Positions 1-45,105 of a stretch of 45,105 bases of DNA are shown here, piece by piece. Each line of letters begins with the position of its first letter. Positions within the stretch are counted from its first letter, which is position 1. Position numbers and translations under genes: made by a program. Source of the DNA: a virus; IMG/VR virus record IMGVR_UViG_3300045988_173304. One strand, 5' to 3'. Below the pieces are notes generated by a model that made no database searches, was not told the origin of the DNA, and saw only the letters and a list, made by a program, of their open reading frames with translations.

Positions 1-77
1 CCAATTCAACAATTCAACTTAAAATGCTCATTTTATATAAGCTTATACGTTAAGTTTTTTTAACGGTGAAAAATTAT
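1..77 (+). repeat. 77-bp structured repeat, copy A (identical to 45029-45105; inverted copy at 27674-27750)
   Basis: Exact string identity read directly. Contains tandem CAATTCAA x2 (2-17) and three abutting palindromes (20-35, 36-47, 48-65). Confidence 0.95.
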
Positions 78-3910: not shown

Positions 3911-4264
3911 ATGAATCAAAAGCAAATTTTATTTTGTCAATACCTAATTGGGGAGTGTAAAGGTGACAAAGCACAAGCTGCAATCAAAGCAGGATATACA
4001 CCTGCTTCAGCAAGAACAAGTGCTGCAAAATTACTCAAAAGACGTGATATTCAGCAGTATATTACACAACTTAATGATGAAGTTGCACAGAATTACACCC
4101 AAGAGGTTGCTAAGTGTGTAAAATATAACATTGCTTCAATTGCTGAAATACAAGCTTTTTGGACAAAAATTATGAACGATGAAGATGAACCGATGAGAAA
4201 TCGACTCAGAGCATCCGAGCTTTTGGGTAAATCGAAAGGAATTTTTACTAACGATGGCTGGTAA
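3911..4264 (+). CDS. Terminase small subunit-like protein (Terminase_2-type)
   Basis: KQILFCQYLI...AAIKAGYTPASARTSAAKLLKRRDIQ...ELLGKSKGIF matches the recalled pattern of the Terminase_2 small-subunit family. Confidence 0.6.
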   Translation: MNQKQILFCQYLIGECKGDKAQAAIKAGYTPASARTSAAKLLKRRDIQQYITQLNDEVAQNYTQEVAKCVKYNIASIAEIQAFWTKIMNDEDEPMRNRLRASELLGKSKGIFTNDGW

Positions 4265-4955
4265 CTTGCGCAATTTTTACACTTCGAGAGATTGGGTTGA
4301 GCTTACAAAAATTATCCGTCTGGAGAGGATGAATGCTGAAGGACAACTGATCTGTGAATATTGTGGCAAACCTATTGTGGCCAAATATGATTGTATTTGT
4401 CACCATAAGATAGAGCTGACAGAGGCCAATTATTTGAATGCTACTATAGCAATGAATCCAGATAACATTATGCTGGTACATCATCGCTGTCATAATAAGA
4501 TACACAATAAACTATGCTATTCCAATAGACAGGTATATATTGTATATGGTAGTCCATTATCTGGTAAGAGTACCTTCGTTAAGGATAATATGGATGTTGG
4601 AGATTATATAGTAGATATCGATAATATATGGCAGAGTATTAGTGGATGCGATAGATATATTAAGCCTAATAGACTACGATCATGTGTGTTTAATATCCGC
4701 AACTATATGATAGATATGGTGCGTATGAGACAAGGTAAATGGCTTAATGCATGGGTCATTGGTGGTTATCCTCTTATATCTGAAAGAGAACGATTGAGCA
4801 AGACTCTTAATGCAAGAGAGATATATATTGACACATCAAAAGATGAATGTATTCGACGATTATATGAATGTGATGATGGTAGAAACATTGATGATTGGTT
4901 GAAGTACATCGATGATTGGTGGGAAAAATTTTCAATGGCCCCCCCATCTGCGTGA
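4254..4955 (+). CDS. HNH endonuclease fused to a P-loop NTPase/kinase-like domain
   Basis: CEYCGKPIV..CHHKIEL..MLVHHRCHNKIH is an HNH pattern. It is followed by YIVYGSPLSGKSTFV (Walker A). Its position just upstream of terS/terL is typical of cos-type HNH packaging helpers. Confidence 0.75.
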   Translation: MAGNLRNFYTSRDWVELTKIIRLERMNAEGQLICEYCGKPIVAKYDCICHHKIELTEANYLNATIAMNPDNIMLVHHRCHNKIHNKLCYSNRQVYIVYGSPLSGKSTFVKDNMDVGDYIVDIDNIWQSISGCDRYIKPNRLRSCVFNIRNYMIDMVRMRQGKWLNAWVIGGYPLISERERLSKTLNAREIYIDTSKDECIRRLYECDDGRNIDDWLKYIDDWWEKFSMAPPSA

Positions 4956-5057
4956 TTCTAGCGTGACCTGAGAACTGTTGAAGTGTGCCCTTTCCTCATG
5001 CAAAGTGAAAAAACGAGATTTTCCAATTTGAGTTTTTTAGAAAGAAGGTGAACAAAA

Positions 5058-5402
5058 TTGAATCGAAGAGAAGAATTGCTAAAATTAGTTGATAAATCTA
5101 ATGCGAGTACGATGATACCTCTCATCGACAAAATGTTGTTTATAGAAAACCAATTGGAAAACCTCGAAAAATTGCCCATGATAAAGGTGCACCCAGACAA
5201 TCCAGAAATCCAAAAAGCAACGCCTGCTGCAAAGCTCTATAAAGAATTTTTGCAGCAGTATACGAACATCATTAAGGTAATTTCTCACAATGTAGAAGAT
5301 GAATCTGATGGAAAGGATAGTCCACTGAGCCGTTGGGTGAAATCTAGAAATGAAATTTTAGACGACATAAAAAGTGGCAAAGGATTGAAACCGTTATGTT
5401 GA
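5058..5402 (+). CDS. terS: Terminase small subunit, P27-family-like
   Basis: Small helical protein directly upstream of, and overlapping, terL, after an HNH gene (the canonical HNH-terS-terL order). TTG start with a GAAGGTGA SD. Confidence 0.55.
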   Translation: MNRREELLKLVDKSNASTMIPLIDKMLFIENQLENLEKLPMIKVHPDNPEIQKATPAAKLYKEFLQQYTNIIKVISHNVEDESDGKDSPLSRWVKSRNEILDDIKSGKGLKPLC

Positions 5403-9745: not shown

Positions 9746-9887
9746 TTATGCTTCTTGTTGGGACATGATTGGACTATCTAATGAAGTTGCAACGTTAAAA
9801 ACTGATTACGACGAAGGTTCAACGTTTTTGGCAGTTGACACTGGAGATATTTATATTTTGTACCAAAAGAAATGGTACAAGCTCTAA
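9729..9887 (+). CDS. Hypothetical small protein (52 aa)
   Basis: In-frame ATGs at 9729/9732/9735 follow a GAAGGTGA and overlap the portal 3' end. Confidence 0.45.
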   Translation: MMMERNYASCWDMIGLSNEVATLKTDYDEGSTFLAVDTGDIYILYQKKWYKL

Positions 9888-9899
9888 GAGGTGATAAAA

Positions 9900-10805
9900 A
9901 TGGACATGTTGCTATATGCGATTTTGAACAAGAAAATCAAAAATAGTGGTGGCTCTGGTGGCACTGCTGTTTATGTTCAGAACTGCACAATCAACGATGA
10001 TGGAAACCTCATTGTTACGCTGTCAGATGGTTCCACGATAAATGCAGGAAAAGCAAAAGGTGATACTGGTGCAGCTGGTCCTAAAGGCGACAAAGGTGAT
10101 ACTGGAGACACTGGGCCTGCTGGTGAGAATGGAACTGATGGCACAAATGGTACAAACGGAAAAGACGGTGTTTCACCGACAATTGAGGTGTATTCCAATA
10201 CTACAACGAGCTATCGACTGAAAATCAATAATGCTGATGGAACGTCAATCATTACTCCAAACCTAATTGGTACAGGCGCAACTACTACTCGGTATTATAT
10301 TTTCGATAATGCAATGTATGCGAATTATACTGACACAATTTACGCTGCGCCAAGCACGGGATTGAAGTCTCTAGGCGATTATGTTACAGAAGAAAATGCA
10401 TTTTGCAATGCTGACTCGAATCACTCAATGTATTATAATACAACATCATTTGGATGGAATCAGCAAGTACCTACATTTTGTACTACACCAATATCAATCA
10501 GCCCAACACAACTGCTGCTGTTTGGATATATCTCAAAGTCGATGAAAGATGGGGAATATTTCAAATTCATTCCTTCTGGGCTCGTTGATGGTACAACTAA
10601 TTTGGAAAAAGCACAGTCAATCCAAAGTTTATTGGCTGCTGGGAATGAAAGCATTGTGACAGTAGATTTTGAATATGTGTATGCGACTGCAGGTGTGACT
10701 GAAGCGGTTGACATTTCTTCCGTTCCTGCTGGTGAGTATTATTTAGTTTGGTCTGGTACCTCTGATAATAGCTCACCAAAAATCAACGATATTACGATTA
10801 TGTGA
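9900..10805 (+). CDS. Collagen-like (Gly-X-Y) repeat protein
   Basis: GDTGAAGPKGDKGDTGDTGPAGENGTDGTNGTNGKDG (nt 10059-10169). ATG 9900 follows a GAGGTGATAAAA SD. Confidence 0.75.
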   Translation: MDMLLYAILNKKIKNSGGSGGTAVYVQNCTINDDGNLIVTLSDGSTINAGKAKGDTGAAGPKGDKGDTGDTGPAGENGTDGTNGTNGKDGVSPTIEVYSNTTTSYRLKINNADGTSIITPNLIGTGATTTRYYIFDNAMYANYTDTIYAAPSTGLKSLGDYVTEENAFCNADSNHSMYYNTTSFGWNQQVPTFCTTPISISPTQLLLFGYISKSMKDGEYFKFIPSGLVDGTTNLEKAQSIQSLLAAGNESIVTVDFEYVYATAGVTEAVDISSVPAGEYYLVWSGTSDNSSPKINDITIM

Positions 10806-34883: not shown

Positions 34884-36635
34884 GTGAGTTCAATTCTTAA
34901 TTTTTACGACTTCGAAGTGTTCAAGGAAGATTGGCTCGTTGTAATTATCAATCCATACGAGAAATCAGAAGTGGTGATTATCAACGACAAAGAGAAGCTC
35001 CAAGAATATTACGATGCTCACAAGAATCAGATTTGGGTCGGTTACAACAATAACCATTATGACCAATATATTCTGAAGGCAATTCTTTGTGGATTCAATC
35101 CTAAGGAAGTCAATGACTTCATCATCAAGGAAGACAAAAAAGGATGGCAATTCAGTTCATTGTTTAAGAAGTTCCAAATGTACAATTTTGATGTTATGCA
35201 ACGTAATGACGGAGGGCTTAAGTCGCTTGAGGGATTTATGGGAAGCAACATCAAAGAAACATCCATTCCTTTCGATATTGACAGAAAATTGACAGAAAGT
35301 GAGATAGAAGAAACTATCAAATATTGCCGACATGACGTTGAGCAAACTATCGAAGTTTTCTTGCAAAGGAAAGACGATCTTGATGTGCAATTGGAACTAA
35401 TAAAAGAATTCAATTTGCCACTCTCATTTGTTACTAAAACACAAACACAACTCACTGCTGAAATTCTTGAAGCAAAATCAGTGAGATTTGGTGATGACTT
35501 CAACATCAATTTTCCTGAGTATTTGAACAAAATCAAGAAGTACAAATATATTGTCGATTGGTTCAAAAAGTTCAAGACAGACAAAATTCTTTCAGATGAC
35601 CAAAAGAAAGAAATCTATGGACAGAATTTGGAAACTGAAGTTGCAGGTGTACCTCATGTATTTGCTTGGGGAGGTTTGCATGGAGCATTACCAAAATACT
35701 TTGGTAAAGGTTATTTTTTGCACATTGACGTATCTCAGTATTATCCAAGTTTGATGACTGGTCACAACTATTTTAGTCGTGCAGCTTCAGATGAAGGAAA
35801 ACGAAGATATGAGATGATGCGAAAAGAATCTATTAGACTGAAAGCATTTCCTGAGCTTAAGAAAAAGCGAACAGGTTACAAGACTTGTAACAATAAAGCC
35901 TATGGTGCGATGAAGGATAAATACAACAAATTATTTGATCCGCTCAATGCAAATAACATTTGTGTCACAGGTCAGCTCGCATTGCTGCTTTTGATTGAAA
36001 TGTTGGAACCTCATTGCAAGCTGATTCAGAGCAATACAGATGGTCTGATCGTAAAGCTTTACTCAATTGATGATTATGAATTGATAGATGATATTTGTTG
36101 GGAATGGGAACAGCTTACACATGTAAAATTGGCATTCGACCCAATTATCACAAGAATCTATCAAAAAGACGTCAACAATTATTTGTTTGTCAATGAAGAT
36201 GGTGAAATTGAAAGTAAGGGTGCATATGTCAAATCACTTAGCCCTTTAGATTTTGATTTGCCGATTGTCAATAAAGCAATTGTTGATTATTTGATTTATG
36301 ACATACCAATTGAGAAGACAATCAATGAATGCGATGCACTGATTATGTTCCAAAAAATCGTCAAGCTTTCAGGTAAATTCAAGCATGTTGTTCATAATGG
36401 CAAGATTTTTACAGAAAAATGCTTTAGAGTTTTTGCCAGTACATGCGATTGTGATTCCTACATTGGAAAACAAAAAGAAGGCAATAATACAATCGAAAAA
36501 TTTGCAAACACACCTGAACATTGCTTCATCGTGAATGACGATGTGAAAAAAGCAACTGTTGGTTGGAGACTTGACAAAGAATGGTATATTAGCATGGCAA
36601 AAAGTAGATTGAAGCAATTTGGAGTGATTATATGA
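34884..36635 (+). CDS. Family B DNA polymerase
   Basis: ExoI FYDFEVF. Motif A DVSQYYPSLM. Motif B KTCNNKAYGAM. Motif C SNTDGLIV. GTG is the only available start upstream of ExoI. Confidence 0.8.
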   Translation: MSSILNFYDFEVFKEDWLVVIINPYEKSEVVIINDKEKLQEYYDAHKNQIWVGYNNNHYDQYILKAILCGFNPKEVNDFIIKEDKKGWQFSSLFKKFQMYNFDVMQRNDGGLKSLEGFMGSNIKETSIPFDIDRKLTESEIEETIKYCRHDVEQTIEVFLQRKDDLDVQLELIKEFNLPLSFVTKTQTQLTAEILEAKSVRFGDDFNINFPEYLNKIKKYKYIVDWFKKFKTDKILSDDQKKEIYGQNLETEVAGVPHVFAWGGLHGALPKYFGKGYFLHIDVSQYYPSLMTGHNYFSRAASDEGKRRYEMMRKESIRLKAFPELKKKRTGYKTCNNKAYGAMKDKYNKLFDPLNANNICVTGQLALLLLIEMLEPHCKLIQSNTDGLIVKLYSIDDYELIDDICWEWEQLTHVKLAFDPIITRIYQKDVNNYLFVNEDGEIESKGAYVKSLSPLDFDLPIVNKAIVDYLIYDIPIEKTINECDALIMFQKIVKLSGKFKHVVHNGKIFTEKCFRVFASTCDCDSYIGKQKEGNNTIEKFANTPEHCFIVNDDVKKATVGWRLDKEWYISMAKSRLKQFGVII

Positions 36636-36814: not shown

Positions 36815-38697
36815 CATTTTTTAAGGGGTTTGTTCCTACAAAAGATAAAAAATGCCTATTAAAATTCAAAGGTAAAACAGCAAGTGAATTGCAAACGTAC
36901 GATCAGGTGAAAAACTTACCTGAATATGCTGGTATTTTATCTGATGAAACCGCTCTGATTGATATTGATGACTTTGAGCAGTCAGAAATTTTGTTCAAGA
37001 TTGTTCAAAATATGAAGTTGCGATGCAGAGTTTATCAAACCAATAGAGGTAAGCATTTTTTATTTATCAATGACAAACTTGAAACGAACAAGATTCGTAC
37101 AAAGTTGGCTTGCGGTCTAACCGCAGATATTAAGATAGGTACAAAAAACTCATATTCCATATTGAAATATGACAATAAGGAACGTGAAATAATTTACGAT
37201 TGTGATGATTATGAAACCGTTCCAAAATGGTTGGTGCCAGTCAAAAGTTCAATTGATTTTTTGGAAATGGAGAGCGGTGACGGTAGAAACCAAACGTTTT
37301 TCAATTACATTTTAACTTTACAATCAAATGATTTTTCGATTGAAGAAGTTCGTGAATGTATCAACATCATAAATAAGTATCTTCTGAAAGACCCATTGGA
37401 TGAATCAGAACTGAATACAATTCTCAGAGATGAAGCATTCAAAAAACCAATGTTTTTCAAAAATGGAAAATTCCAATTTGATAAGTTTGCAATATATTTG
37501 AAGAAGATTCACCACATTGTGAGAATCAATGGACAGCTGCATATTTATCATGATGGAATCTATGTTCCTGGTCAGCTTGAAATTGAAGCAGCGATGATTG
37601 AACACATTCCAAATTTGAATCGCTCAAAGCGAACTGAGGTATTGAGTTATTTGGAAGTACTTACGCGACAAAATACTCGTCCTAGTCATGCAAAATATAT
37701 TGCTTTCAAAAATGGAATATATGACATTGAGGATGATAGATTGATTGATTTTTCTCCTGACATAATAATCACTAACAAAATCAATTTCGATTATAATCCT
37801 GACGCTTCCAGTGAGCTTTTAGATAATACCCTTAATAAATTATCGTGTAACGATAAGAATGTCAGAGCGTTGCTTGAGGAAGCTGTGGGTTATTGTTTTT
37901 ATCGACGAAATGAGTTGAGAAAATCATTTATCCTCACAGGTGACAAAAAGAATGGTAAGTCTACATATTTGTCAATGCTTAAAGAATTGCTCGGTGACGA
38001 TAATACAGCAGCATTGGACCTGAATGAATTAGGTGACAGGTTTTCATCAGCATCATTATTCGGAAAATTGGCAAATATCGGTGATGATATTGGCGATGAC
38101 TTTATTGCAAATCCTTCGATATTTAAGAAAATCGTTTCTGGTGACCCAATAAAGGGTGAAAAGAAAGGCCAAAATGAATTCTTCTTCGCACCATATTGTA
38201 AGCTCTTATTCTCAGCGAACAATATTCCAAGAATGAAAGATAAATCTGGTGCGGTATTAAGTAGATTGGTTATCATTCCGTTTGATGCCACATTTTCTAA
38301 GGATGACCCTGATTTTGATCCATATATCAAATATAAACTGATTGAGCCCGATGTTTTGGAATATCTCATTGTGTTAGGCATTCAAGGCCTTAAGCGTATT
38401 TTGAAAAACAATGCATTTACGAAATCTGACAAAGTTCAGAAATCAATTGAAGAATATGAAGAGACAAATAATCCTATTCAATTATTCTTCAAGGAAGTTG
38501 ATGCAAATGACATTGAGAATGAACCAACAAAAGAAATTTACAGACAATATAATGAATTTTGTTTGGCAAATGCATTCAATCCAATGTCAAATATTGAATT
38601 TTCAAAACAAGTCAAAAAGCAGTTTGATTTTGAAATCAAGGACAAGACAATTAAAGGTAAGAAGTATCGGATATTTGTCAAGAAAGAGAGTATGTAA
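36811..38697 (+). CDS. Primase-polymerase / SF3 helicase (P4-type primase-helicase)
   Basis: N-terminal LIDIDD prim-pol motif. C-terminal LTGDKKNGKST Walker A and D5/P4-like region. ATG 36811 overlaps the upstream stop. Confidence 0.8.
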   Translation: MTFFKGFVPTKDKKCLLKFKGKTASELQTYDQVKNLPEYAGILSDETALIDIDDFEQSEILFKIVQNMKLRCRVYQTNRGKHFLFINDKLETNKIRTKLACGLTADIKIGTKNSYSILKYDNKEREIIYDCDDYETVPKWLVPVKSSIDFLEMESGDGRNQTFFNYILTLQSNDFSIEEVRECINIINKYLLKDPLDESELNTILRDEAFKKPMFFKNGKFQFDKFAIYLKKIHHIVRINGQLHIYHDGIYVPGQLEIEAAMIEHIPNLNRSKRTEVLSYLEVLTRQNTRPSHAKYIAFKNGIYDIEDDRLIDFSPDIIITNKINFDYNPDASSELLDNTLNKLSCNDKNVRALLEEAVGYCFYRRNELRKSFILTGDKKNGKSTYLSMLKELLGDDNTAALDLNELGDRFSSASLFGKLANIGDDIGDDFIANPSIFKKIVSGDPIKGEKKGQNEFFFAPYCKLLFSANNIPRMKDKSGAVLSRLVIIPFDATFSKDDPDFDPYIKYKLIEPDVLEYLIVLGIQGLKRILKNNAFTKSDKVQKSIEEYEETNNPIQLFFKEVDANDIENEPTKEIYRQYNEFCLANAFNPMSNIEFSKQVKKQFDFEIKDKTIKGKKYRIFVKKESM

Positions 38698-38858
38698 TGA
38701 TCGAGTGCATCAGTTTTGAGGCCATGAATAGAATCAGTCTTGCAGCAAAGTTGGAGGAAATTTCTCGTAAGGTTGCAGTAATTGATTGGCATATGACGTA
38801 TGACCTCAACCGAAAAAAATTTGTTGCAATTGTGAGGTATGTCAAAAATGAACCGTAA
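38697..38858 (+). CDS. Hypothetical small protein (53 aa, below the ORF-track cutoff)
   Basis: TAATG overlap with the primase stop. Its end overlaps the next start. Hand translation gives MIECISFEAMNRISLAAKLEEISRKVAVIDWHMTYDLNRKKFVAIVRYVKNEP. Confidence 0.45.
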   Translation: MIECISFEAMNRISLAAKLEEISRKVAVIDWHMTYDLNRKKFVAIVRYVKNEP

Positions 38859-39120
38859 GTATTTTTCAGAGCGCTTGAAAGAATTACGCAGACTGAACAA
38901 AGAAACTCAAAATCATTTAGCAAATGCAATTTACGTGTCGGTAAGTACACTTCGAGGATATGAATCAATGGAACATGTTCCAAGTGTTGACATCCTCATC
39001 GCAATTGCAAAGCATTACAATGTGACAGTTGACTCGTTATTGTTTAAGAATGCCGATAGTTATTCAAAGCATTTGGAAAATAAGCTGCTACAGATTCGAG
39101 CCCTTACATGTGAATTTTAA
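38848..39120 (+). CDS. XRE-family HTH regulator
   Basis: LKELRRLNKETQNHLANAIYVSVSTLRGYESMEHVPSVDILIAIAKHYNVTVDSLL. Confidence 0.75.
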   Translation: MNRKYFSERLKELRRLNKETQNHLANAIYVSVSTLRGYESMEHVPSVDILIAIAKHYNVTVDSLLFKNADSYSKHLENKLLQIRALTCEF

Positions 39121-39130
39121 GGAGGAACAA

Positions 39131-39619
39131 ATGAGAATTTTGATTGATGGTTGTGATGGTACAGGAAAAACCACAATCAGCGAGAAACTTGCCAACAAAC
39201 TTGGCTGCAACATCATCAGATTGACATATAACGGTGATCGTTCACAACAGGCATATGTCGAACTGATGGAATGTGAAAATGTTGTACACGACAGAACTTT
39301 CCTCAGTGAAATTATCTATCCAAAGTATTTTGGAAGAGAAAGTAGATTGGACAAAAACGTTGTACCTAACCTGCTAAATTTCATTGAGCAGAACAATGTG
39401 AAGGTATTTATACTCACAGCGAAGCCAGAAACGATTCTGGAGCGCATTGACAAGCGAGGCGATGAATTTATCGCTGATTCTGAAAAGTTCATCCAGATAA
39501 ATCTGGACTATCTGAGTGTAGCAGAAGAATGTGGCTTCACCGTGGTTGATACAACAAATAAAACAATCGATGAAATTATCGATGAAATGTTAGGAGAGAT
39601 GAAAGATGATCGCAGATAA
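39131..39619 (+). CDS. dNMP (thymidylate-kinase-like) kinase
   Basis: ILIDGCDGTGKTT is a Tmk-type P-loop. About 160 aa. SD AAGGAGGAACAA. Confidence 0.65.
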   Translation: MRILIDGCDGTGKTTISEKLANKLGCNIIRLTYNGDRSQQAYVELMECENVVHDRTFLSEIIYPKYFGRESRLDKNVVPNLLNFIEQNNVKVFILTAKPETILERIDKRGDEFIADSEKFIQINLDYLSVAEECGFTVVDTTNKTIDEIIDEMLGEMKDDRR

Positions 39620-40406
39620 TATGGATGACATCTATAGAGGTATTTGCTTTGATTTGATGCAGGCACCTCAGGTAAGAGGAACGAAAGAGCTGAACGGGTA
39701 TTCCTTCACACTGACTAATTTGGATAACAACGTTATCAATGTGAGAAATATCTCAAAATCTTACATTTGCGGAGAGCTACTTTGGTACGCTCTGGGGCGC
39801 AACGATGTAGGGTTCATAAACAAGTTTGCTGGCCTTTGGGGTCGCATCTCTGATGACGGAGTAACCTCATATTCAGCATATGGTGATATTGTCTTCAGCA
39901 GACACGGTTTCAATCAGGTCGAGAAGATTATTCAGCTTTTATGCAATGACCCTACAAGCAGACGAGCCGTTATCAATTTCAATGTTCCAAATGAACATGT
40001 GATTGAGACAAAGGATGAGATTTGCACAATTGCTTTGCAGTTCTTGATTCGAGACGGCAAACTCAATTGTTACGGTATCATGCGCAGCAATGATGTTTGG
40101 TTTGGTTTACCGTATGACACTATTTTCTTTACGGAACTCACGAAGTATATTGCGAAAAGAGTTGGTGTTCCGTACGGTACATATACTCACACTGTTGTAA
40201 GTCTTCACGTTTACGAACGCAATTATGCTGACATTGAATTTGCAGCAAATGCCGTTCCAACTCTTCAAATTTCAGTAGATTTTGAAAAGTTGATGCAATA
40301 CAAATTTATTTTGGAACACATTGTGGAAACAAGTGACAGTCCAAAAATTGATTTGGTTCTGGCATGTGAAGATTATGGTATTTTGAAGGAGGAAAAGCAT
40401 GCGTAA
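39606..40406 (+). CDS. ThyA-fold pyrimidine C5-transferase with a cytosine-type Asp: candidate dCMP hydroxymethylase
   Basis: Catalytic Cys in EICTIALQF (codon 40023-25). RSND. GLPYD in place of the GLPFN of thymidylate synthase (Asp codon 40116-18). LHVYERN. Confidence 0.6.
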   Translation: MIADNMDDIYRGICFDLMQAPQVRGTKELNGYSFTLTNLDNNVINVRNISKSYICGELLWYALGRNDVGFINKFAGLWGRISDDGVTSYSAYGDIVFSRHGFNQVEKIIQLLCNDPTSRRAVINFNVPNEHVIETKDEICTIALQFLIRDGKLNCYGIMRSNDVWFGLPYDTIFFTELTKYIAKRVGVPYGTYTHTVVSLHVYERNYADIEFAANAVPTLQISVDFEKLMQYKFILEHIVETSDSPKIDLVLACEDYGILKEEKHA

Positions 40407-40989
40407 TTATGTCGTATATAAACATACTTGCCCAAACGGTAAGGTTTATATTGGCATTACTTTTTTAGATGTCAAACAACGTTGGAAAAATGGCTATAAA
40501 CATAATGCTCATTTTCAAAATGCAATCCTTAAATATGGTTGGGATAATATCAAGCATGAGATTCTTTTTGAAGGTCTTACGAAAGAAGAAGCTTGTCAGA
40601 AAGAAATTGAACTGATTACTCTGTATAAATCCAATCAAAGAGAATTTGGATATAACAAAAGTTCTGGTGGAGAATCTCATGAAGGTTGTAAAGCATCTAA
40701 AGAACTTCGTAAAAAATTAAGTGAGAGTCATATTGGAAAAAAGCAATCGCAAGAAACTATTGAAAAACGACGAAAATCTATGACCGGTAAGCGTTGGAAA
40801 TGTTCCGATGAAGCAAGACACAATATGAGTTTAGCAAAAAAAGGAAAGCCGACAAGTAAAAGGTTGATAATTGAAGGTAAATCACTTTATCAATGGAGCG
40901 AAGAGCTTGGCATAAAGCCTCATACTCTTTATGTAAGAATATTTACGTATAAGTGGCCTTTAGAAAAGGCATTATCAAAGAAAGGATGA
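40399..40989 (+). CDS. GIY-YIG homing endonuclease (free-standing)
   Basis: YVVYKHTCPNGKVYIGIT..RWKNGYKHN..KYGW..E is a GIY-YIG pattern. NUMOD3-like SESHIGKKQS / HNMSLAKKGKP. C-terminal HTH-like module. Confidence 0.85.
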   Translation: MRNYVVYKHTCPNGKVYIGITFLDVKQRWKNGYKHNAHFQNAILKYGWDNIKHEILFEGLTKEEACQKEIELITLYKSNQREFGYNKSSGGESHEGCKASKELRKKLSESHIGKKQSQETIEKRRKSMTGKRWKCSDEARHNMSLAKKGKPTSKRLIIEGKSLYQWSEELGIKPHTLYVRIFTYKWPLEKALSKKG

Positions 40990-40995
40990 TATATT

Positions 40996-41427
40996 TTGCG
41001 CATTCGTGTTATTGATTTTGGCTATGAAAGCCTTCCAAAAAGAGCTCATGCAAATGATGCAGGTGCAGATGTCCATGCTCACATTATTGGTTCTGAAGGA
41101 CAAAGCGGTGCTATCACGATCGCTCCAAATACAACGGTAAAAATTCCGTTAGGTTTGGGTTTAGTGCTTCCTGACGGTTATGCAGCTTTCGTATTTCCAC
41201 GAAGCGGTTTAAGCAGCAAAGGTATTACATGCGAGTTGCCTCCGATTGATTCAGGTTACCGTGGAGAGATTCACGCGATCGTTACCAATTGTAGTACTAA
41301 AGCAGTTGTTGTACACGATGGAGACAGAATCGGACAACTTCTCATAATGCCGATTGTTATCGCTGATTTCATCACTGATGATTTTGAACAACGTGGAACT
41401 GGAGCCTTTGGTAGTACAGGAGTGTAA
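40996..41427 (+). CDS. dut: Trimeric dUTPase-family enzyme (dUTPase, possibly dCTPase)
   Basis: AGADV, FPRSGLSSKG, IDSGYRGEI, GDRIGQL, RGTGAFGSTG: the five dUTPase motifs. Confidence 0.85.
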   Translation: MRIRVIDFGYESLPKRAHANDAGADVHAHIIGSEGQSGAITIAPNTTVKIPLGLGLVLPDGYAAFVFPRSGLSSKGITCELPPIDSGYRGEIHAIVTNCSTKAVVVHDGDRIGQLLIMPIVIADFITDDFEQRGTGAFGSTGV

Positions 41428-41429
41428 GC

Positions 41430-41672
41430 ATGGATGAAGGATATATCCAATTGGCAGGTGAAATTGTTAGAGGACAACTTAAACAATATCATGCGGCACT
41501 GAACAAATATTCACGTGAAAGCAGACGAATTGGTATATTACGGCAAATCACATCAATTGAACACGAGTTGTTAACACATTATTACGACGTGTTAACACTC
41601 GGTAAAATTGATTTTGAAGAGTATATTAAATGCAAGCACGAACAATATGGTATTAAGGAGAACGTGCAATGA
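41430..41672 (+). CDS. Hypothetical protein (80 aa)
   Basis: ORF coupled on both sides. Confidence 0.5.
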   Translation: MDEGYIQLAGEIVRGQLKQYHAALNKYSRESRRIGILRQITSIEHELLTHYYDVLTLGKIDFEEYIKCKHEQYGIKENVQ

Positions 41673-41971
41673 GTTTTTCAGAAAATTTGAAAATTTTTCG
41701 TAAGCAAAAAGGACTTTCGCAAAAGGAATTGTCACAAAAACTTGATGTGGATCAAACAAATTGCTCTGTATGGGAAAGAGGAATTTGTTATCCAAAAGTA
41801 AGCACATTGTTGAAAATATGCGATATTTTGGAAGTTACACCGAATCAGTTGTTTGACTATGACTTTGACGAGAATTATATGCAAGAGAAACTCGACCACA
41901 TTACTGAAGAACTTGACAGCTTGTGTGAAACAATCGAATATGCCAAAAAGAAAGTGGTGATAAACAAGTGA
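41669..41971 (+). CDS. XRE-family HTH regulator
   Basis: LKIFRKQKGLSQKELSQKLDVDQTNCSVWERG. Confidence 0.8.
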   Translation: MSFSENLKIFRKQKGLSQKELSQKLDVDQTNCSVWERGICYPKVSTLLKICDILEVTPNQLFDYDFDENYMQEKLDHITEELDSLCETIEYAKKKVVINK

Positions 41972-42023
41972 TGTGGTTGTGTTTGATAATCGTCATTTTG
42001 TGGGCATCATGGGAGTGTGAAAG

Positions 42024-42734
42024 ATGATAAAAATTGAAAATACTGAAGTGTATGGTTGGGAAGCAGCCATTCGAGGAATGCGGAACCCGATGAATAGTTG
42101 GGACAAGTCAGATACCGAACTCACAATAAGCACCCAATATTTTGGGAATGTGAGCACACGGCGAACCGAAATTTGTATTGGAAAAAAAGACTTCGCCTTG
42201 ATGAAAACGCTCGTCGAGGCGGGTACAGACCACAGAAAATTCCTTCGCATGGTCAATGTGACAGTTGACATCACTGCGCCATTGTATTGGTGGAAAGAGT
42301 TTGACACATACAAGGTTGGTACTGTTCGTGATTCATGCTCAACGATGCACAAAATCACAGCGAAAGAATTTGAACTGAGTGATTTTTCAAGGGAGCATTT
42401 AATAACTTTGGATTATCAACATTATACCATTTTGGATACAGAAGAATTAGAACGGATTGAATTACAAACAGCATCGTTGGAAATTTTGAGAGTAATCATT
42501 CAGGCACTGAATAATTACAGAAATTTGTATCTTAAAACTAAAGATAAGAAACATTGGTGGCAGATAATTCAGCTTTTACCGTCAAGTTATAACCAGCGTG
42601 CAACAGTACAACTCAATTATGAGGTGCTGTTGAACATGTATCATTCGAGAAAGAATCACAAGCTCGATGAGTGGAGAACATTCTGCGAATGGATTGAGTC
42701 GCTGCCTTATATGGGGGAATTTTTAAATGTTTGA
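42024..42734 (+). CDS. ThyX (Thy1)-like protein with a non-canonical signature
   Basis: The overall pattern (..AGTDHRKFLRMVNVTVDITAPLYWWKEFDTYKVGTVRDSCSTMH..) resembles flavin-dependent thymidylate synthase. The RHRxxSxxxxSxR motif is replaced by FDTYKVGTVRDSCSTM. Confidence 0.4.
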   Translation: MIKIENTEVYGWEAAIRGMRNPMNSWDKSDTELTISTQYFGNVSTRRTEICIGKKDFALMKTLVEAGTDHRKFLRMVNVTVDITAPLYWWKEFDTYKVGTVRDSCSTMHKITAKEFELSDFSREHLITLDYQHYTILDTEELERIELQTASLEILRVIIQALNNYRNLYLKTKDKKHWWQIIQLLPSSYNQRATVQLNYEVLLNMYHSRKNHKLDEWRTFCEWIESLPYMGEFLNV

Positions 42735-42840
42735 AGTCGGAATTATTACTTTTTGCTTGTTGAGTATATTGTTTTTGAGTGCAGATAATAAACGGCTCGA
42801 AGAAGAATTGAAAGAACGTAAAGAAAACCCGGACGAATGA
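42727..42840 (+). CDS. Small membrane peptide (37 aa, below the ORF-track cutoff)
   Basis: MFEVGIITFCLLSILFLSADNKRLEEELKERKENPDE. SD GGGGGAATTTTTA. Confidence 0.5.
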   Translation: MFEVGIITFCLLSILFLSADNKRLEEELKERKENPDE

Positions 42841-42862
42841 ATTTATTTGAGGAGGAACTATC

Positions 42863-44503
42863 ATGGAAAAATTTTATCTCGGAATCTCATTTGGTTTTAA
42901 CGCATCTGCGTGTGTTGTATCTAATGAACGAGGAGTGCTTGCAGCTATCTCTCAGGAACGCTTGAACGGTGAAAAGAACACCAAAGAGCTTCCTTTCGAT
43001 GCTGCTCTGAAGTGCTGTGAAATTACTGGTGTATACAATTTTGAAGCTCTCGCAGTATCTCACTATGAGAACATCAGCGTTAGTTATTTGCAGAAGTACG
43101 GTAAAAAGTACAATCTTCACGGTGACAAATGGCAAGATGTGATTCACAACTACTTCAGTGGAATTGAAATTGAGAAAATTGTACATGTACACCATCATTG
43201 GGCTCATGCGTATGCTACAACTGCATTTTATGACAATCCTGAGTTTGGTGATTACCTCATCACTTCTGACGGTTTTGGTGATGGCAGTAGTGGAATCATC
43301 TGCGAATATGGCGATATTGACGTTAGCGCAGATTTGCCACTCAGAGCGTCAATTGGTCTGGTGTACCAATTTGTGACAGGAGCATTAGGCTTCACAGAGC
43401 ACAAGCATGAAGGAAAAATTACAGGACTTGCTGCATTTGGCCACCCAAAATATCTGAGAGAATTCTATTCTTTGGAAGTTGAATCTCGCAAGGTAATTTT
43501 GACAGAGGAAGAAGAACAAATGGTGAAGGAATCTCACATCTATGATTTCAGTGATTTCCTCAAACTGAAGAAAGCAACTTACTCACTCGTTGAAAATCTG
43601 AAAGCAGCAGGAGCAACACGTGAGGACATTGCTGCTACAGTTCAGGAATATGCAGAGCAGAGTGTTTGCAAATGGATATATGAGAACGTCAACGAACGTG
43701 GTCACAATTGCTATCTGTCTGGTGGATTGTTTGCAAATGTGAAAATCAATCAGAGAATAAAAGAATTAGGCATCTTCAAGAATGTTTATGTGTGCCCTGC
43801 AATGGGAGATGAAGGTAATGCAATTGGTGCTGCTTATGCAATTATCGGTTGTATTCCTAAAGCAAAAATCAGTCCGAATCAATGCGGCACAGTTGCAAAT
43901 GAAGGTCTGATCGTAGGTGAGTCTGACAAGTATTCTTGCCGCAGAATTGCTGACGATAATGAATTGGCAAAGACAATCGCAGAGATGCTCAGCGAAAATA
44001 AGATTGTTTGCCTCGTTAAGGGTAAGATGGAATTTGGTCCTCGTGCTCTTTGTCACCGTAGCATCTTGTATAACTGCGACACAAAGGAAACCAATACTTG
44101 GCTCAATGAAAAACTTGGCCGCACAGAATTTATGCCTTTCGCTCCTGTATGCCGTGAAGAAGTAGCGGATGACCTGTTCTTGGAACTTGATGGTGGCAGA
44201 GACAGTGCAAAGCATATGACGATGACGTTCGATTGTACGCCAGAATTCGCCAGAGACTATCCTGCTGCTTGCCACGTAGATAATACTGCAAGACCTCAGA
44301 TAGTCTCTCAGGATGAAGACCCGTTCATCTGGAGCGTACTGAACAAATATCAAGAGTTAACTGGCAAGAAGGCACTCATCAATACGAGTTTCAACTTGCA
44401 CAATTACCCGATCATTGAATCGGCTGAAGTAGCAGTAAAGAGCTGGATCACTAGCGGTACAGATGTACTCGTTATCGGTAATACTGTATTGGAGAAAAAG
44501 TAA
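42863..44503 (+). CDS. NodU/CmcH/TobZ-family O-carbamoyltransferase
   Basis: N-terminal YLGISFGFNASACVV..ISQERL. HHHWAHAYATTAF. SDGFGDGSSG. GRTEFMPFAPV. NTSFNLHNYPIIES. These span both halves of the family as recalled. Confidence 0.75.
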   Translation: MEKFYLGISFGFNASACVVSNERGVLAAISQERLNGEKNTKELPFDAALKCCEITGVYNFEALAVSHYENISVSYLQKYGKKYNLHGDKWQDVIHNYFSGIEIEKIVHVHHHWAHAYATTAFYDNPEFGDYLITSDGFGDGSSGIICEYGDIDVSADLPLRASIGLVYQFVTGALGFTEHKHEGKITGLAAFGHPKYLREFYSLEVESRKVILTEEEEQMVKESHIYDFSDFLKLKKATYSLVENLKAAGATREDIAATVQEYAEQSVCKWIYENVNERGHNCYLSGGLFANVKINQRIKELGIFKNVYVCPAMGDEGNAIGAAYAIIGCIPKAKISPNQCGTVANEGLIVGESDKYSCRRIADDNELAKTIAEMLSENKIVCLVKGKMEFGPRALCHRSILYNCDTKETNTWLNEKLGRTEFMPFAPVCREEVADDLFLELDGGRDSAKHMTMTFDCTPEFARDYPAACHVDNTARPQIVSQDEDPFIWSVLNKYQELTGKKALINTSFNLHNYPIIESAEVAVKSWITSGTDVLVIGNTVLEKK

Positions 44504-44913
44504 TGAAAAGACCTACAATCGAAGAATATTATCTTAGCATTGCAGCGGCCGTCAGCAGACGGTCGACCTGCATGCGAAGACAATATGGAGCGGTGATAGT
44601 TAAAAATGATGAAATCATCGCAACAGGATATAATGGCTCGCCTAGAGGTGAAATGAATTGCTGTGACAGTACAGATGCCTGCAAAAGACTCGGTCATGAG
44701 CATAACGATGGCGATTATGGTGACTGTGAAAGCGTGCATGCTGAAATGAATGCAATGATTTCTGCAGCTCGTAAGGATATGATCAATTCAACATTATATC
44801 TTTATGGCGAAGAAAATGGCAAAATTATCAATGCAGAACCTTGCCCGATATGCTCTCGAATGATAAAAAATGCAGGGATTTTTAAGGTGATCACTGCAAA
44901 AGAAAATAATTGA
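44503..44913 (+). CDS. dCMP deaminase (zinc cytidine/deoxycytidylate deaminase fold)
   Basis: VHAEMNAM...PCPICSRMIKNAG is the HAE / PCxxC zinc site. TAATG-coupled to the carbamoyltransferase. Confidence 0.85.
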   Translation: MKRPTIEEYYLSIAAAVSRRSTCMRRQYGAVIVKNDEIIATGYNGSPRGEMNCCDSTDACKRLGHEHNDGDYGDCESVHAEMNAMISAARKDMINSTLYLYGEENGKIINAEPCPICSRMIKNAGIFKVITAKENN

Positions 44914-44941
44914 CAGTTATTTTTGTGCAAAGTGCATATAA

Positions 44942-44995
44942 GCAATTCAAGATGAAATTCATCAAATTCAACGTTAACATTTCATCTTGAATTGC
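44942..44995. repeat. 17-bp perfect-stem hairpin/cruciform carrying AATTCAA motifs
   Basis: GCAATTCAAGATGAAAT (44942-58) pairs with ATTTCATCTTGAATTGC (44979-95), with a 20-nt loop. No U-run follows, so it is not a standard terminator. Confidence 0.8.
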
Positions 44996-45028
44996 AAAAA
45001 TGCCACGTGGGACCGCTAAATACGAACA

Positions 45029-45105
45029 CCAATTCAACAATTCAACTTAAAATGCTCATTTTATATAAGCTTATACGTTAAGTTTTTTTAACGGTGAAAA
45101 ATTAT
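45029..45105 (+). repeat. 77-bp structured repeat, terminal copy (identical to nt 1-77)
   Basis: Exact identity read directly. Confidence 0.95.

Follow-up and report, generated by a model that had tools for sequence, protein, structure and literature searches.

Carbamoyltransferase domains are enriched in contigs of metavirome DNA selected for modified cytosines, where they are always located beside ThyA homologues with an Asp at position 177, here termed ThyA(Asp177), and often beside dCMP deaminase and PRA-PH domains (Yang et al., eLife 2021, PMC8670742). One recombinant phage enzyme from this group, encoded at a locus with a ThyA(Asp177), a dCMP deaminase and a nucleoside triphosphate (NTP) pyrophosphatase, converts 5-hydroxymethyl-deoxycytidine (5hmdC) into 5-carbamoyloxymethyl-deoxycytidine (5cmdC) with carbamoyl phosphate and ATP as the co-substrates. 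Single-stranded DNA (~100% on oligonucleotides), double-stranded DNA, 5hmdCTP (~60%) and RNA are all substrates, 5mdCTP and 5hmdUTP are not, and W408, G421 and R423 of the antibiotic-pathway enzyme TobZ were singled out as the three differential positions (PMC8670742). In the literature searched, there is no report of 5cmdC in the DNA of an identified phage. Here, we compare with these systems a carbamoyltransferase gene and its neighbours in the virus record IMGVR_UViG_3300045988_173304 (IMG/VR), a sequence of 45,105 nucleotides (nt) termed below the window. The gene lies within a cassette (39131-44913) that probably directs replacement of deoxycytidine (dC) by 5hmdC followed by O-carbamoylation, resulting in 5cmdC in the phage DNA. 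This sequence of reactions, 5-hydroxymethylation and then O-carbamoylation, was proposed in the initial annotation and is supported by the computational evidence from active-site residues, gene linkage and cassette conservation. That annotation did not, however, regard the modification as established, and it was already published in 2021 (PMC8670742); the window is a divergent new member of the system described then and not a new DNA modification.

The window carbamoyltransferase is composed of the two domains Carbam_trans_N and Carbam_trans_C, and its metal-site and YrdC-like motifs are intact. GdmN is the best match in the PDB (E 2.3e-51), TobZ is also matched (E 1.8e-27), and the HxxxH/D/D metal motifs align. 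No variation is seen among 26 family members at residues H111, H115, D136 and D316 or in the motifs MEFGPRAL, FMPFAPV, HxDxTARPQ and NTSFN, all of which align to GdmN. The full-length alignment to the characterised enzyme, designated the MetaGPA enzyme, has 26% identity (E 2e-35). There are >100 metagenomic relatives (protein clusters) with 48-99% identity, many of them on phage contigs of 40-52 kb. No close relative was found in a cultured phage; the best tblastn matches have at most 32% identity over a partial length and are mostly to cyanophage Nol-like genes. The three differential TobZ positions were mapped by exact spacing (13 and 2 residues) within the motif W-FQGR-MEFGPRAL-G-N-R and not from an alignment to TobZ. 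The window motif, CLVKGK-MEFGPRAL-CHRS, has Leu, Cys and Arg at positions 408, 421 and 423, and the MetaGPA enzyme has Ile, Cys and Thr, so that the two agree at two of the three (Trp408 to an aliphatic residue, Gly421 to Cys). The Cys at position 421 is Cys397 of the window enzyme and is invariant in the 26 family members. In 80 cellular relatives, Gly421 and Arg423 are present without exception and Trp408 is present in 58, whereas Trp408 has been lost from the 57 viral enzymes with Cys421. Residue 423 is either Arg or Thr within both phage clades, as exemplified by CHTS in locus L001 and CNRS in L138 and L139. A pattern for enzymes of this type is CL..G.MEFGPRALCHRS.

A co-occurrence analysis, suggested in the initial annotation, was based on 83 viral or metagenomic and 80 cellular loci that were fetched and scanned with the window proteins (individual loci are cited by L number). 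A ThyA homologue is present within the fetched flank at 53 of the 57 viral Cys421 loci and at none of the 80 cellular loci, and at three of the four viral exceptions the contig ends within the flank. Among the viral carbamoyltransferases with Gly421, the 17 that fall outside both phage clades all lack a ThyA neighbour. The linkage is conserved in L001-L004, L085-L094 and L101. In a tree of 135 sequences, calculated by neighbour joining from 508 columns with 200 bootstraps, the window family and the clade of the MetaGPA enzyme are each recovered in 200/200 bootstraps, and the two are joined against all other sequences in 115/200. The window enzyme is not placed inside the clade of the characterised enzyme but belongs to a sister lineage; a single origin of both phage clades is likely, although not secure. 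We infer that the window gene encodes a 5-hydroxymethylcytosine O-carbamoyltransferase. Six more distant loci, L095-L100 (37-39% identity), form an intermediate group in which SEFGPRAL precedes Met (L097-L100) or Gly (L095, L096); they branch with the window family (200/200), and in some a ThyA with the Asp is several kb away. A search of a part of the 2021 'modified contigs' FASTA file, in both orientations, for exact 14-mers from the sequence encoding MEFGPRAL gave no hit, which says little.

The neighbouring ThyA-like enzyme is predicted to provide the hydroxymethyl group. As noted in the initial annotation, it has a cytosine-type Asp; the sequence RSNDVWFGLPYD places this residue at E. coli ThyA position 177, the position of the cytosine-reading Asp179 of T4 gp42. 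An ordinary ThyA, a dUMP methylase, is ruled out by the profile scores and by residues 143, 147 and 177, with Asp177 and Thr147 in place of the canonical Asn177 and His147. NCBIfam thymidylate synthase (TS) models give at most 82.7 bits relative to cut-offs of 108-576 (equivalog 174.55), and in the PDB the CMP 5-hydroxymethylase MilA is the best match (E 1.7e-29), with ThyA (E 4e-17 or weaker) and T4 gp42 (E 4e-11) also matched. Reference enzymes were compared because Asp177 alone cannot separate a methylase from a hydroxymethylase. The gp42 reference sequence was verified as identical to PDB 1B49, and the E. coli numbering was checked at 11 known residues. The window enzyme has Cys146, Asp177, Asp143, Thr147 and Asn168, as in T4 gp42 and MilA. 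Expressed as motifs, the hydroxymethylases gp42 (DxxCT, RSND) and MilA (DxxCT, RAND) resemble the window enzyme (DxxCT, RSND), whereas the Xp12 dCMP methylase has NVPCP and RSSD (Asn143, Pro147, Ser168). BLASTP scores do not discriminate (Xp12 TS 71.6, E. coli ThyA 66.6 and T4 gp42 63.5 bits). In an alignment anchored on E. coli ThyA, Cys146, Asp177 and Asp143 are present in 51/51 of the carbamoyltransferase-linked ThyA homologues and Thr147 in 49/51. Among cultured phages, the closest homologues (43-53% identity) belong to Enterococcus phages, including VPE25 and VFW (43%). The cytosines of these two are resistant to bisulfite and to restriction, and a beta-glucosyltransferase is encoded in their genomes (Duerkop et al. 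2016, PMC4999554). The residues and homologues, from a small reference set, thus favour a dCMP hydroxymethylase and not a methylase. A dUMP hydroxymethylase with 5hmU as the primary product was considered and rejected because all of the linked ThyA homologues have Asp177. Where 5-hm-dCTP and 5-hm-dUTP had been offered as alternative products, Asp177 indicates the cytosine branch and not the uracil branch.

Nine + strand genes are located in 39131-44913 (Table 1), and the whole of the predicted pathway fits in 5.8 kb. All six nucleotide and carbamoyl genes named in the initial annotation, for the kinase, ThyA-fold, dUTPase-family, ThyX-like, carbamoyltransferase and deaminase proteins, are present at the positions and on the strand it gave, in the list of open reading frames (ORFs) and in profile scans. 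The remaining three encode a GIY-YIG homing endonuclease, an 80-amino-acid (aa) protein and a helix-turn-helix (HTH) regulator and are outside the chemistry. Description of the cassette as a tightly coupled operon holds in part: there is a 14-nt overlap of the kinase gene with the ThyA gene and the carbamoyltransferase stop codon overlaps the deaminase start codon as described (TAATG, 44501-44505), but the three additional genes interrupt the series and a gap of 128 nt precedes the carbamoyltransferase gene. Strong Shine-Dalgarno sites are located upstream of the kinase gene (AAGGAGG) and of the carbamoyltransferase gene. A scan of 38600-45105 for promoters and terminators was no better than for shuffled sequence (26 versus 19.5 +/- 4.5 promoter-like and 2 versus 3.3 terminator-like sites) and gave no operon boundaries.

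Table 1. Positions and profile or family matches of the window features considered here (E, expect value).
Feature	Position	Strand	Matches
Tyrosine integrase	26589..27629	-	PF00589, E 2.7e-21
DNA polymerase	34884..36635	+	phrog_1252, E 1.9e-158
Tmk-like P-loop dNMP kinase	39131..39619	+	Thymidylate_kin PF02223, E 4e-14; phrog_761, E 3.6e-22
ThyA-fold pyrimidine C5 one-carbon transferase	39606..40406	+	PF00303, E 2.9e-24
GIY-YIG homing endonuclease	40399..40989	+	PF01541, E 2.5e-7; phrog_314, E 1.2e-35
Trimeric dUTPase-family enzyme	40996..41427	+	PF00692, E 4.5e-20; phrog_135, E 4.3e-36
80-aa ORF, variable filler	41430..41672	+	no Pfam or PHROG match
XRE-type HTH regulator (HTH_3)	41669..41971	+	PF01381, E 4.6e-12
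ThyX-fold protein, 236 aa	42024..42734	+	no Pfam hit above threshold; phrog_6721 'unknown function', E 1.5e-77
NodU/CmcH/TobZ-family two-domain O-carbamoyltransferase	42863..44503	+	PF02543, E 3.5e-29; PF16861, E 1.7e-51
dCMP-deaminase-family zinc deaminase	44503..44913	+	PF00383, E 5e-20; phrog_174, E 3e-41

The order kinase-ThyA-dUTPase-ThyX-fold-carbamoyltransferase-deaminase is retained in relatives with 61% and 52% carbamoyltransferase identity, and a version with the order kinase-ThyA-carbamoyltransferase-dUTPase is present, at 49% carbamoyltransferase identity, in phages whose replication module is of DnaE/RecA type. Conservation of the kinase-ThyA-carbamoyltransferase core extends down to 42-49% carbamoyltransferase identity and across differing replication modules; most relatives, but not all, also encode the dUTPase, ThyX-fold protein and deaminase. 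A MetaGPA-type locus from IMG/VR (L116) has genes for a carbamoyltransferase, a P-loop kinase, a dUTPase and a ThyA. The GIY-YIG gene is a recent mobile insertion, as the block 40396-41013 is missing from a contig with 98-99% identity (L085, IMGVR_UViG_3300045988_164467), in which it is replaced by 21 bp, a presence/absence polymorphism located between the ThyA-like and dUTPase genes; no GIY-YIG homologue was found in any related locus scanned. Other small ORFs occupy the position of the 80-aa ORF in L001 and L002, and the HTH regulator is not at this position in either.

The kinase has the P-loop GCDGTGKTT and scores 59.3 bits with the NCBIfam dTMP kinase model, below the equivalog cut-off of 83.25. 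Its gene adjoins the ThyA gene in relatives, and in L090, L091, L092, L096 and L101 (37-47% identity) the kinase and ThyA matches share one ORF, directly downstream of the carbamoyltransferase gene (from ~9770-9910 onward), which suggests a kinase-ThyA fusion protein. The dUTPase (NCBIfam dUTP diphosphatase 98.8 bits, cut-off 103) is conserved in the cassettes of L001, L002 and L085-L089. The HAE and PCxxC zinc motifs are present in the deaminase, the gene for which adjoins the carbamoyltransferase gene in L001 and L085-L089 and, given the TAATG overlap, is predicted to be translationally coupled to it. Deaminases of this family encoded near ThyA(Asp177) can act on 5m- and 5hm-dC nucleotides, and ThyA(Asp177)-linked phage enzymes have generated 5hmdU from 5hmdC in vivo; in the same study, five of seven deaminase-linked ThyA(Asp177) homologues tested made 5mdCMP (bioRxiv 10.1101/2024.12.05.627091). 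The initial description of the gene set as T4-style is apt for the hydroxymethylase-type ThyA, the kinase and the deaminase, but the set is incomplete, as no dCTPase or MazG-like protein was found among the scanned ORFs and the ThyX signature is missing.

The 236-aa protein was originally listed as ThyX-like, which is correct for its fold but not for its sequence signature. The AlphaFold (AF2) model has a mean predicted local distance difference test score (pLDDT) of 76 and a predicted template modelling score (pTM) of 0.69. With this model, Foldseek returned 123 PDB matches at E <= 1e-3, of which the best 50 are all ThyX (top E 2.3e-6, TM-scores 0.55-0.62), and matches in BFVD annotated as ThyX-like (E 1.9e-5 or weaker). 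The Pfam Thy1 score is 15.7 bits, below the cut-off of 24.8, and is also sub-threshold across the family, with 15 of 25 members matching (best E 0.0024). As a profile search of the family against PDB sequences returned nothing and an hhalign comparison with a single ThyX sequence gave only E 0.12, the active-site mapping is tentative. In this low-confidence register, the region of the RHRxxS...SxRY motif reads TYKVGTVRDSCSTMH and so lacks the signature: RHR corresponds to T95-Y96-K97, RHRxxS to TYKVGT, Arg90 to a Thr and Ser88 to an invariant Cys105. Arg174 and the LP/N163/N169 region are apparently kept, as judged by eye, and Cys105 falls in a loop that is predicted to be flexible (residues 100-109, with a pLDDT under 50). 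The protein may be a flavin-dependent pyrimidine-nucleotide enzyme with a ThyX fold and a non-canonical active site, a conserved accessory that may be the dTMP-forming partner of the pathway, analogous to T4 Td. Its homologues in cultured phages are found in those of Clostridium and Enterocloster, where the annotated neighbours include neither a carbamoyltransferase nor a ThyA. With >8000 database relatives and no Pfam family, this widespread group of proteins merits enzymology.

In the pathway that we favour, the deaminase and dUTPase would, as expected from their families, convert dCMP and dUTP to dUMP, so draining the dC pool, excluding uracil from DNA and feeding dTMP synthesis. Based on its residues and homologues, the ThyA-fold enzyme would transfer the methylene group of methylenetetrahydrofolate to C5 of dCMP and then add water to give 5hm-dCMP, with Cys146 as the nucleophile, Asp177 reading the cytosine, and D143 and T147 as in T4 gp42 and MilA. 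The Tmk-like kinase, by analogy with T4 gp1, would phosphorylate 5hm-dCMP to 5hm-dCDP and a host NDP kinase would generate the triphosphate, for incorporation by the phage polymerase, which must then accept a modified dNTP. By homology to the MetaGPA enzyme, the carbamoyltransferase would form carbamoyl-AMP from carbamoyl phosphate and ATP in the YrdC-like domain and transfer the carbamoyl group at the Kae1-like metal site to the 5-CH2OH, either of 5hm-dCTP or of (single-stranded) DNA at the fork. The expected benefit is virion DNA shielded from restriction and from other DNA-targeting defences.

Several points weigh against this pathway. The phage and its carbamoyltransferase clade are known from sequence alone, the identity to the MetaGPA enzyme is low and, unlike that enzyme, the window enzyme retains Arg423. 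Its raw scores are higher with cellular carbamoyltransferases (up to 270 bits) than with those of MetaGPA type (94-160 bits), and support for the joint clade is only 57% in a distance tree that may be subject to long-branch attraction. The call of a hydroxymethylase over a methylase is from two reference hydroxymethylases and one methylase. Among the ~49 ORFs scanned in the complete genome there was no hit to a gp56-, MazG- or PRA-PH-type dCTPase or other NTP pyrophosphatase, so that the extent of dC replacement is uncertain, and, because C5-modified cytidine nucleotides can be substrates for phage deaminases of this family, a 5hm-dU side product is possible.

The raw scores are also consistent with a carbamoyltransferase that is a passenger, acting, like the cyanophage Nol-type enzymes, on a glycan, an antibiotic-like metabolite or a cell-surface sugar, while its neighbours make 5hmC or 5mC independently. 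Sugars and polyketides are indeed the acceptors of NodU, CmcH, TobZ and the best PDB match, GdmN, and in many phages a Nol-like carbamoyltransferase is encoded without a ThyA in the vicinity, as represented here by the viral Gly421 enzymes outside the two phage clades. The gene is, however, inside a nucleotide cassette and coupled, as predicted from the overlap, to a deaminase gene; the ThyA(Asp177) linkage holds across 42-98% identity and differing phage backbones; Gly421Cys and loss of Trp408 are shared with the characterised clade, with Cys421 in none of the cellular enzymes; and no glycan or secondary-metabolite genes were seen among the genome ORFs scanned. We regard a passenger role as very unlikely. 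Were the end product instead a uracil derivative, the coupled deaminase would make 5hm-dU nucleotides and the carbamoyltransferase would generate carbamoyloxymethyl-uracil, replacing some or all of the T, perhaps alongside modified C. The overlap of the deaminase start with the carbamoyltransferase stop and the adjacency of the pair in L001 and L085-L089 are consistent with this reading, as are the 5hmdU yielded in vivo by phage enzymes of the deaminase family encoded beside ThyA(Asp177) (bioRxiv 10.1101/2024.12.05.627091) and the Arg423 of the window clade in place of the Thr in a characterised enzyme only 26% identical. That characterised relative is, however, inactive on 5hmdUTP, and residue 423 varies between Arg and Thr inside both clades. 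The deaminase gene is missing from the L003 and L004 flanks and is 2 kb away in L002, and so is not obligatory for the carbamoyltransferase, and a plain dCMP-to-dUMP role, like that of T4 Cd, accounts for its presence. A uracil end product is very unlikely.

An Xp12-like dCMP methylase would result in DNA with 5-methylcytosine, a deaminase that makes dTTP from 5m-dC nucleotides and no hydroxyl acceptor in DNA for the carbamoyltransferase. Asp177 is common to methylases and hydroxymethylases, the BLASTP scores are equivocal, and 5mdCMP was the product of most of the deaminase-linked homologues tested (bioRxiv 10.1101/2024.12.05.627091). Nevertheless, D143, T147 and N168 are as in T4 gp42 and MilA and not as in Xp12, MilA is by far the best solved match, and the phages with the nearest cultured homologues pair the enzyme with a beta-glucosyltransferase, which needs 5hmC. 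A strictly co-inherited O-carbamoyltransferase, moreover, makes sense only with a hydroxyl acceptor, and we give the methylase little credence. It is also conceivable, although unlikely, that the window clade is not a simple orthologue of the 2021 enzyme but, with the deaminase and the Cys105 ThyX-fold protein, makes an undescribed base in an integrase-bearing phage that would need to switch from canonical prophage DNA to hypermodified virion DNA and back. This base could be 5-carbamoyloxymethyl-uracil, formed via 5hm-dC deamination, or the product of a second pyrimidine modification by the ThyX-fold enzyme. Synthesis of 5hmdC followed by its O-carbamoylation to 5cmdC remains the probable function of the cassette.

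The first and last 77 bases of the window (1-77 and 45029-45105) are identical, an exact terminal direct repeat, and given this overlap of its ends the window is a complete circular assembly of ~45,028 bp. Directly after the cassette come the late regulator and the lysis/packaging genes with which the window starts. Elsewhere, the genome encodes this late regulator, a holin, an endolysin, a terminase, a portal protein and a tail-gene region with a 1009-aa ORF of tape-measure size (siphovirus-like), together with a SNF2 helicase, a PD-(D/E)XK/AAA_24 protein, a DNA polymerase and a D5-type primase-helicase. The backbone is of Clostridia type, with an integrase; the nearest matches of the large terminase are in a human faecal phage (73%) and Butyrivibrio phages (48%), and the phage group is large and apparently gut-associated. 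No tRNA was found in the genome, and a megablast of the cassette against 50,697 phage records gave no match. The polymerase that had been reported just upstream is present ~2.5 kb from the cassette, with the D5-type primase-helicase between them, and has 53% identity to the polymerase of Paenibacillus phage Wanderer; it has no Pfam, NCBIfam or PDB sequence match to support the earlier assignment to family B.

That the phage is temperate, as first proposed, has the tyrosine integrase as the sole evidence. On the minus strand, the integrase gene is the only one of any size, and it is not accompanied by a divergent gene for a CI-type repressor. No copy of the cassette was present in 185,579 species-representative genomes, in which a scan with the carbamoyltransferase protein found nothing and a scan with the family alignment found only cellular carbamoyltransferases with 25-40% identity (best 33-40%), which were of use as controls, so that lysogeny remains putative; the scans gave no host. 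Several other features of the genome were noted. An HNH endonuclease ORF (4254-4955) is located between a Terminase_2 ORF (3911-4264) and an unassigned 114-aa ORF that precedes TerL (region 3911-5402). The Terminase_2 ORF is short, covering only positions 1-75 of the 141 in the profile, and the HNH ORF is possibly another insertion of homing type, located within or beside the gene for the small terminase. Two adjacent ORFs in the replication module (31510-32214 and 32228-32587) match 'minor tail protein' PHROGs (E 5e-15 and 2.7e-12) but no Pfam family, and a 304-aa ORF in the head-gene region (9891-10805), immediately after the portal gene, has collagen-like triple-helix repeats (PF01391, E 3.8e-6, just under the cut-off).

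To date, 5cmdC is known from one recombinant enzyme plus metagenomic enrichment. The window adds a complete genome that encodes a member of a second and abundant carbamoyltransferase clade, with a compact cassette that could be used for reconstitution. It also provides a sequence rule by which such phages may be recognized, namely Cys at the Gly421 position and no Trp408 in a carbamoyltransferase encoded beside a ThyA with DxxCT and Asp177. If the integrase is functional, the phage would alternate between unmodified prophage DNA and fully modified virion DNA and, to our knowledge, such alternation has not been described for replacements of the hmC type.

The MetaGPA system is the closest of those described. 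In both, a phage contig carries the gene for a two-domain NodU/TobZ-type carbamoyltransferase, with neighbouring genes for a dCMP deaminase and for a ThyA that has Asp177 and a residue other than His at position 147; Gly421 is replaced by Cys and Trp408 is lost, and in the point tree the two enzymes group against all cellular enzymes. The window enzyme, however, belongs to a separate, well-supported sister clade (26% identity) and keeps Arg423. The typical partner in the MetaGPA contigs is a PRA-PH/MazG-type pyrophosphatase, whereas the window has a trimeric dUTPase and the ThyX-fold protein, with no such pyrophosphatase found, and its genome has an integrase and a Clostridia-type backbone. 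TobZ, GdmN, NovN, NodU and CmcH have the same fold and domain order, the motifs HxxxH, D, GDEG, MEFGPRAL, FMPFAPV, HxDxTAR and NTSFN and, presumably, the same carbamoyl-AMP chemistry. Their acceptors are, however, aminoglycosides, ansamycins, coumarins, Nod factors and cephalosporins, Trp408 and Gly421 are retained, and their genes are in secondary-metabolite or nodulation clusters, with ThyA adjacent at 0/80 sampled cellular loci. The Enterococcus phages VPE25 and VFW and their relatives are, similarly, siphoviruses of Firmicutes and have the closest cultured homologues of the ThyA-like enzyme, but they encode glycosyltransferases and no close homologue of the window carbamoyltransferase. Bacteriophage T4 is a lytic myovirus and the window a 45-kb, integrase-bearing, siphovirus-like phage with a Tmk-like kinase and with no gp56-type dCTPase or ThyA-type Td found; the decoration predicted here is a carbamoyl group, from carbamoyl phosphate and ATP, whereas in T4 it is glucose, added from UDP-glucose by alpha- and beta-glucosyltransferases. 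The pre-replicative logic is nevertheless that of T4, with a predicted ThyA-fold dCMP hydroxymethylase (DxxCT, T4 Asp179), a dNMP kinase and a dCMP deaminase providing a hydroxymethyl group that is then decorated, and in both phages a homing endonuclease gene is located among the genes for nucleotide metabolism.

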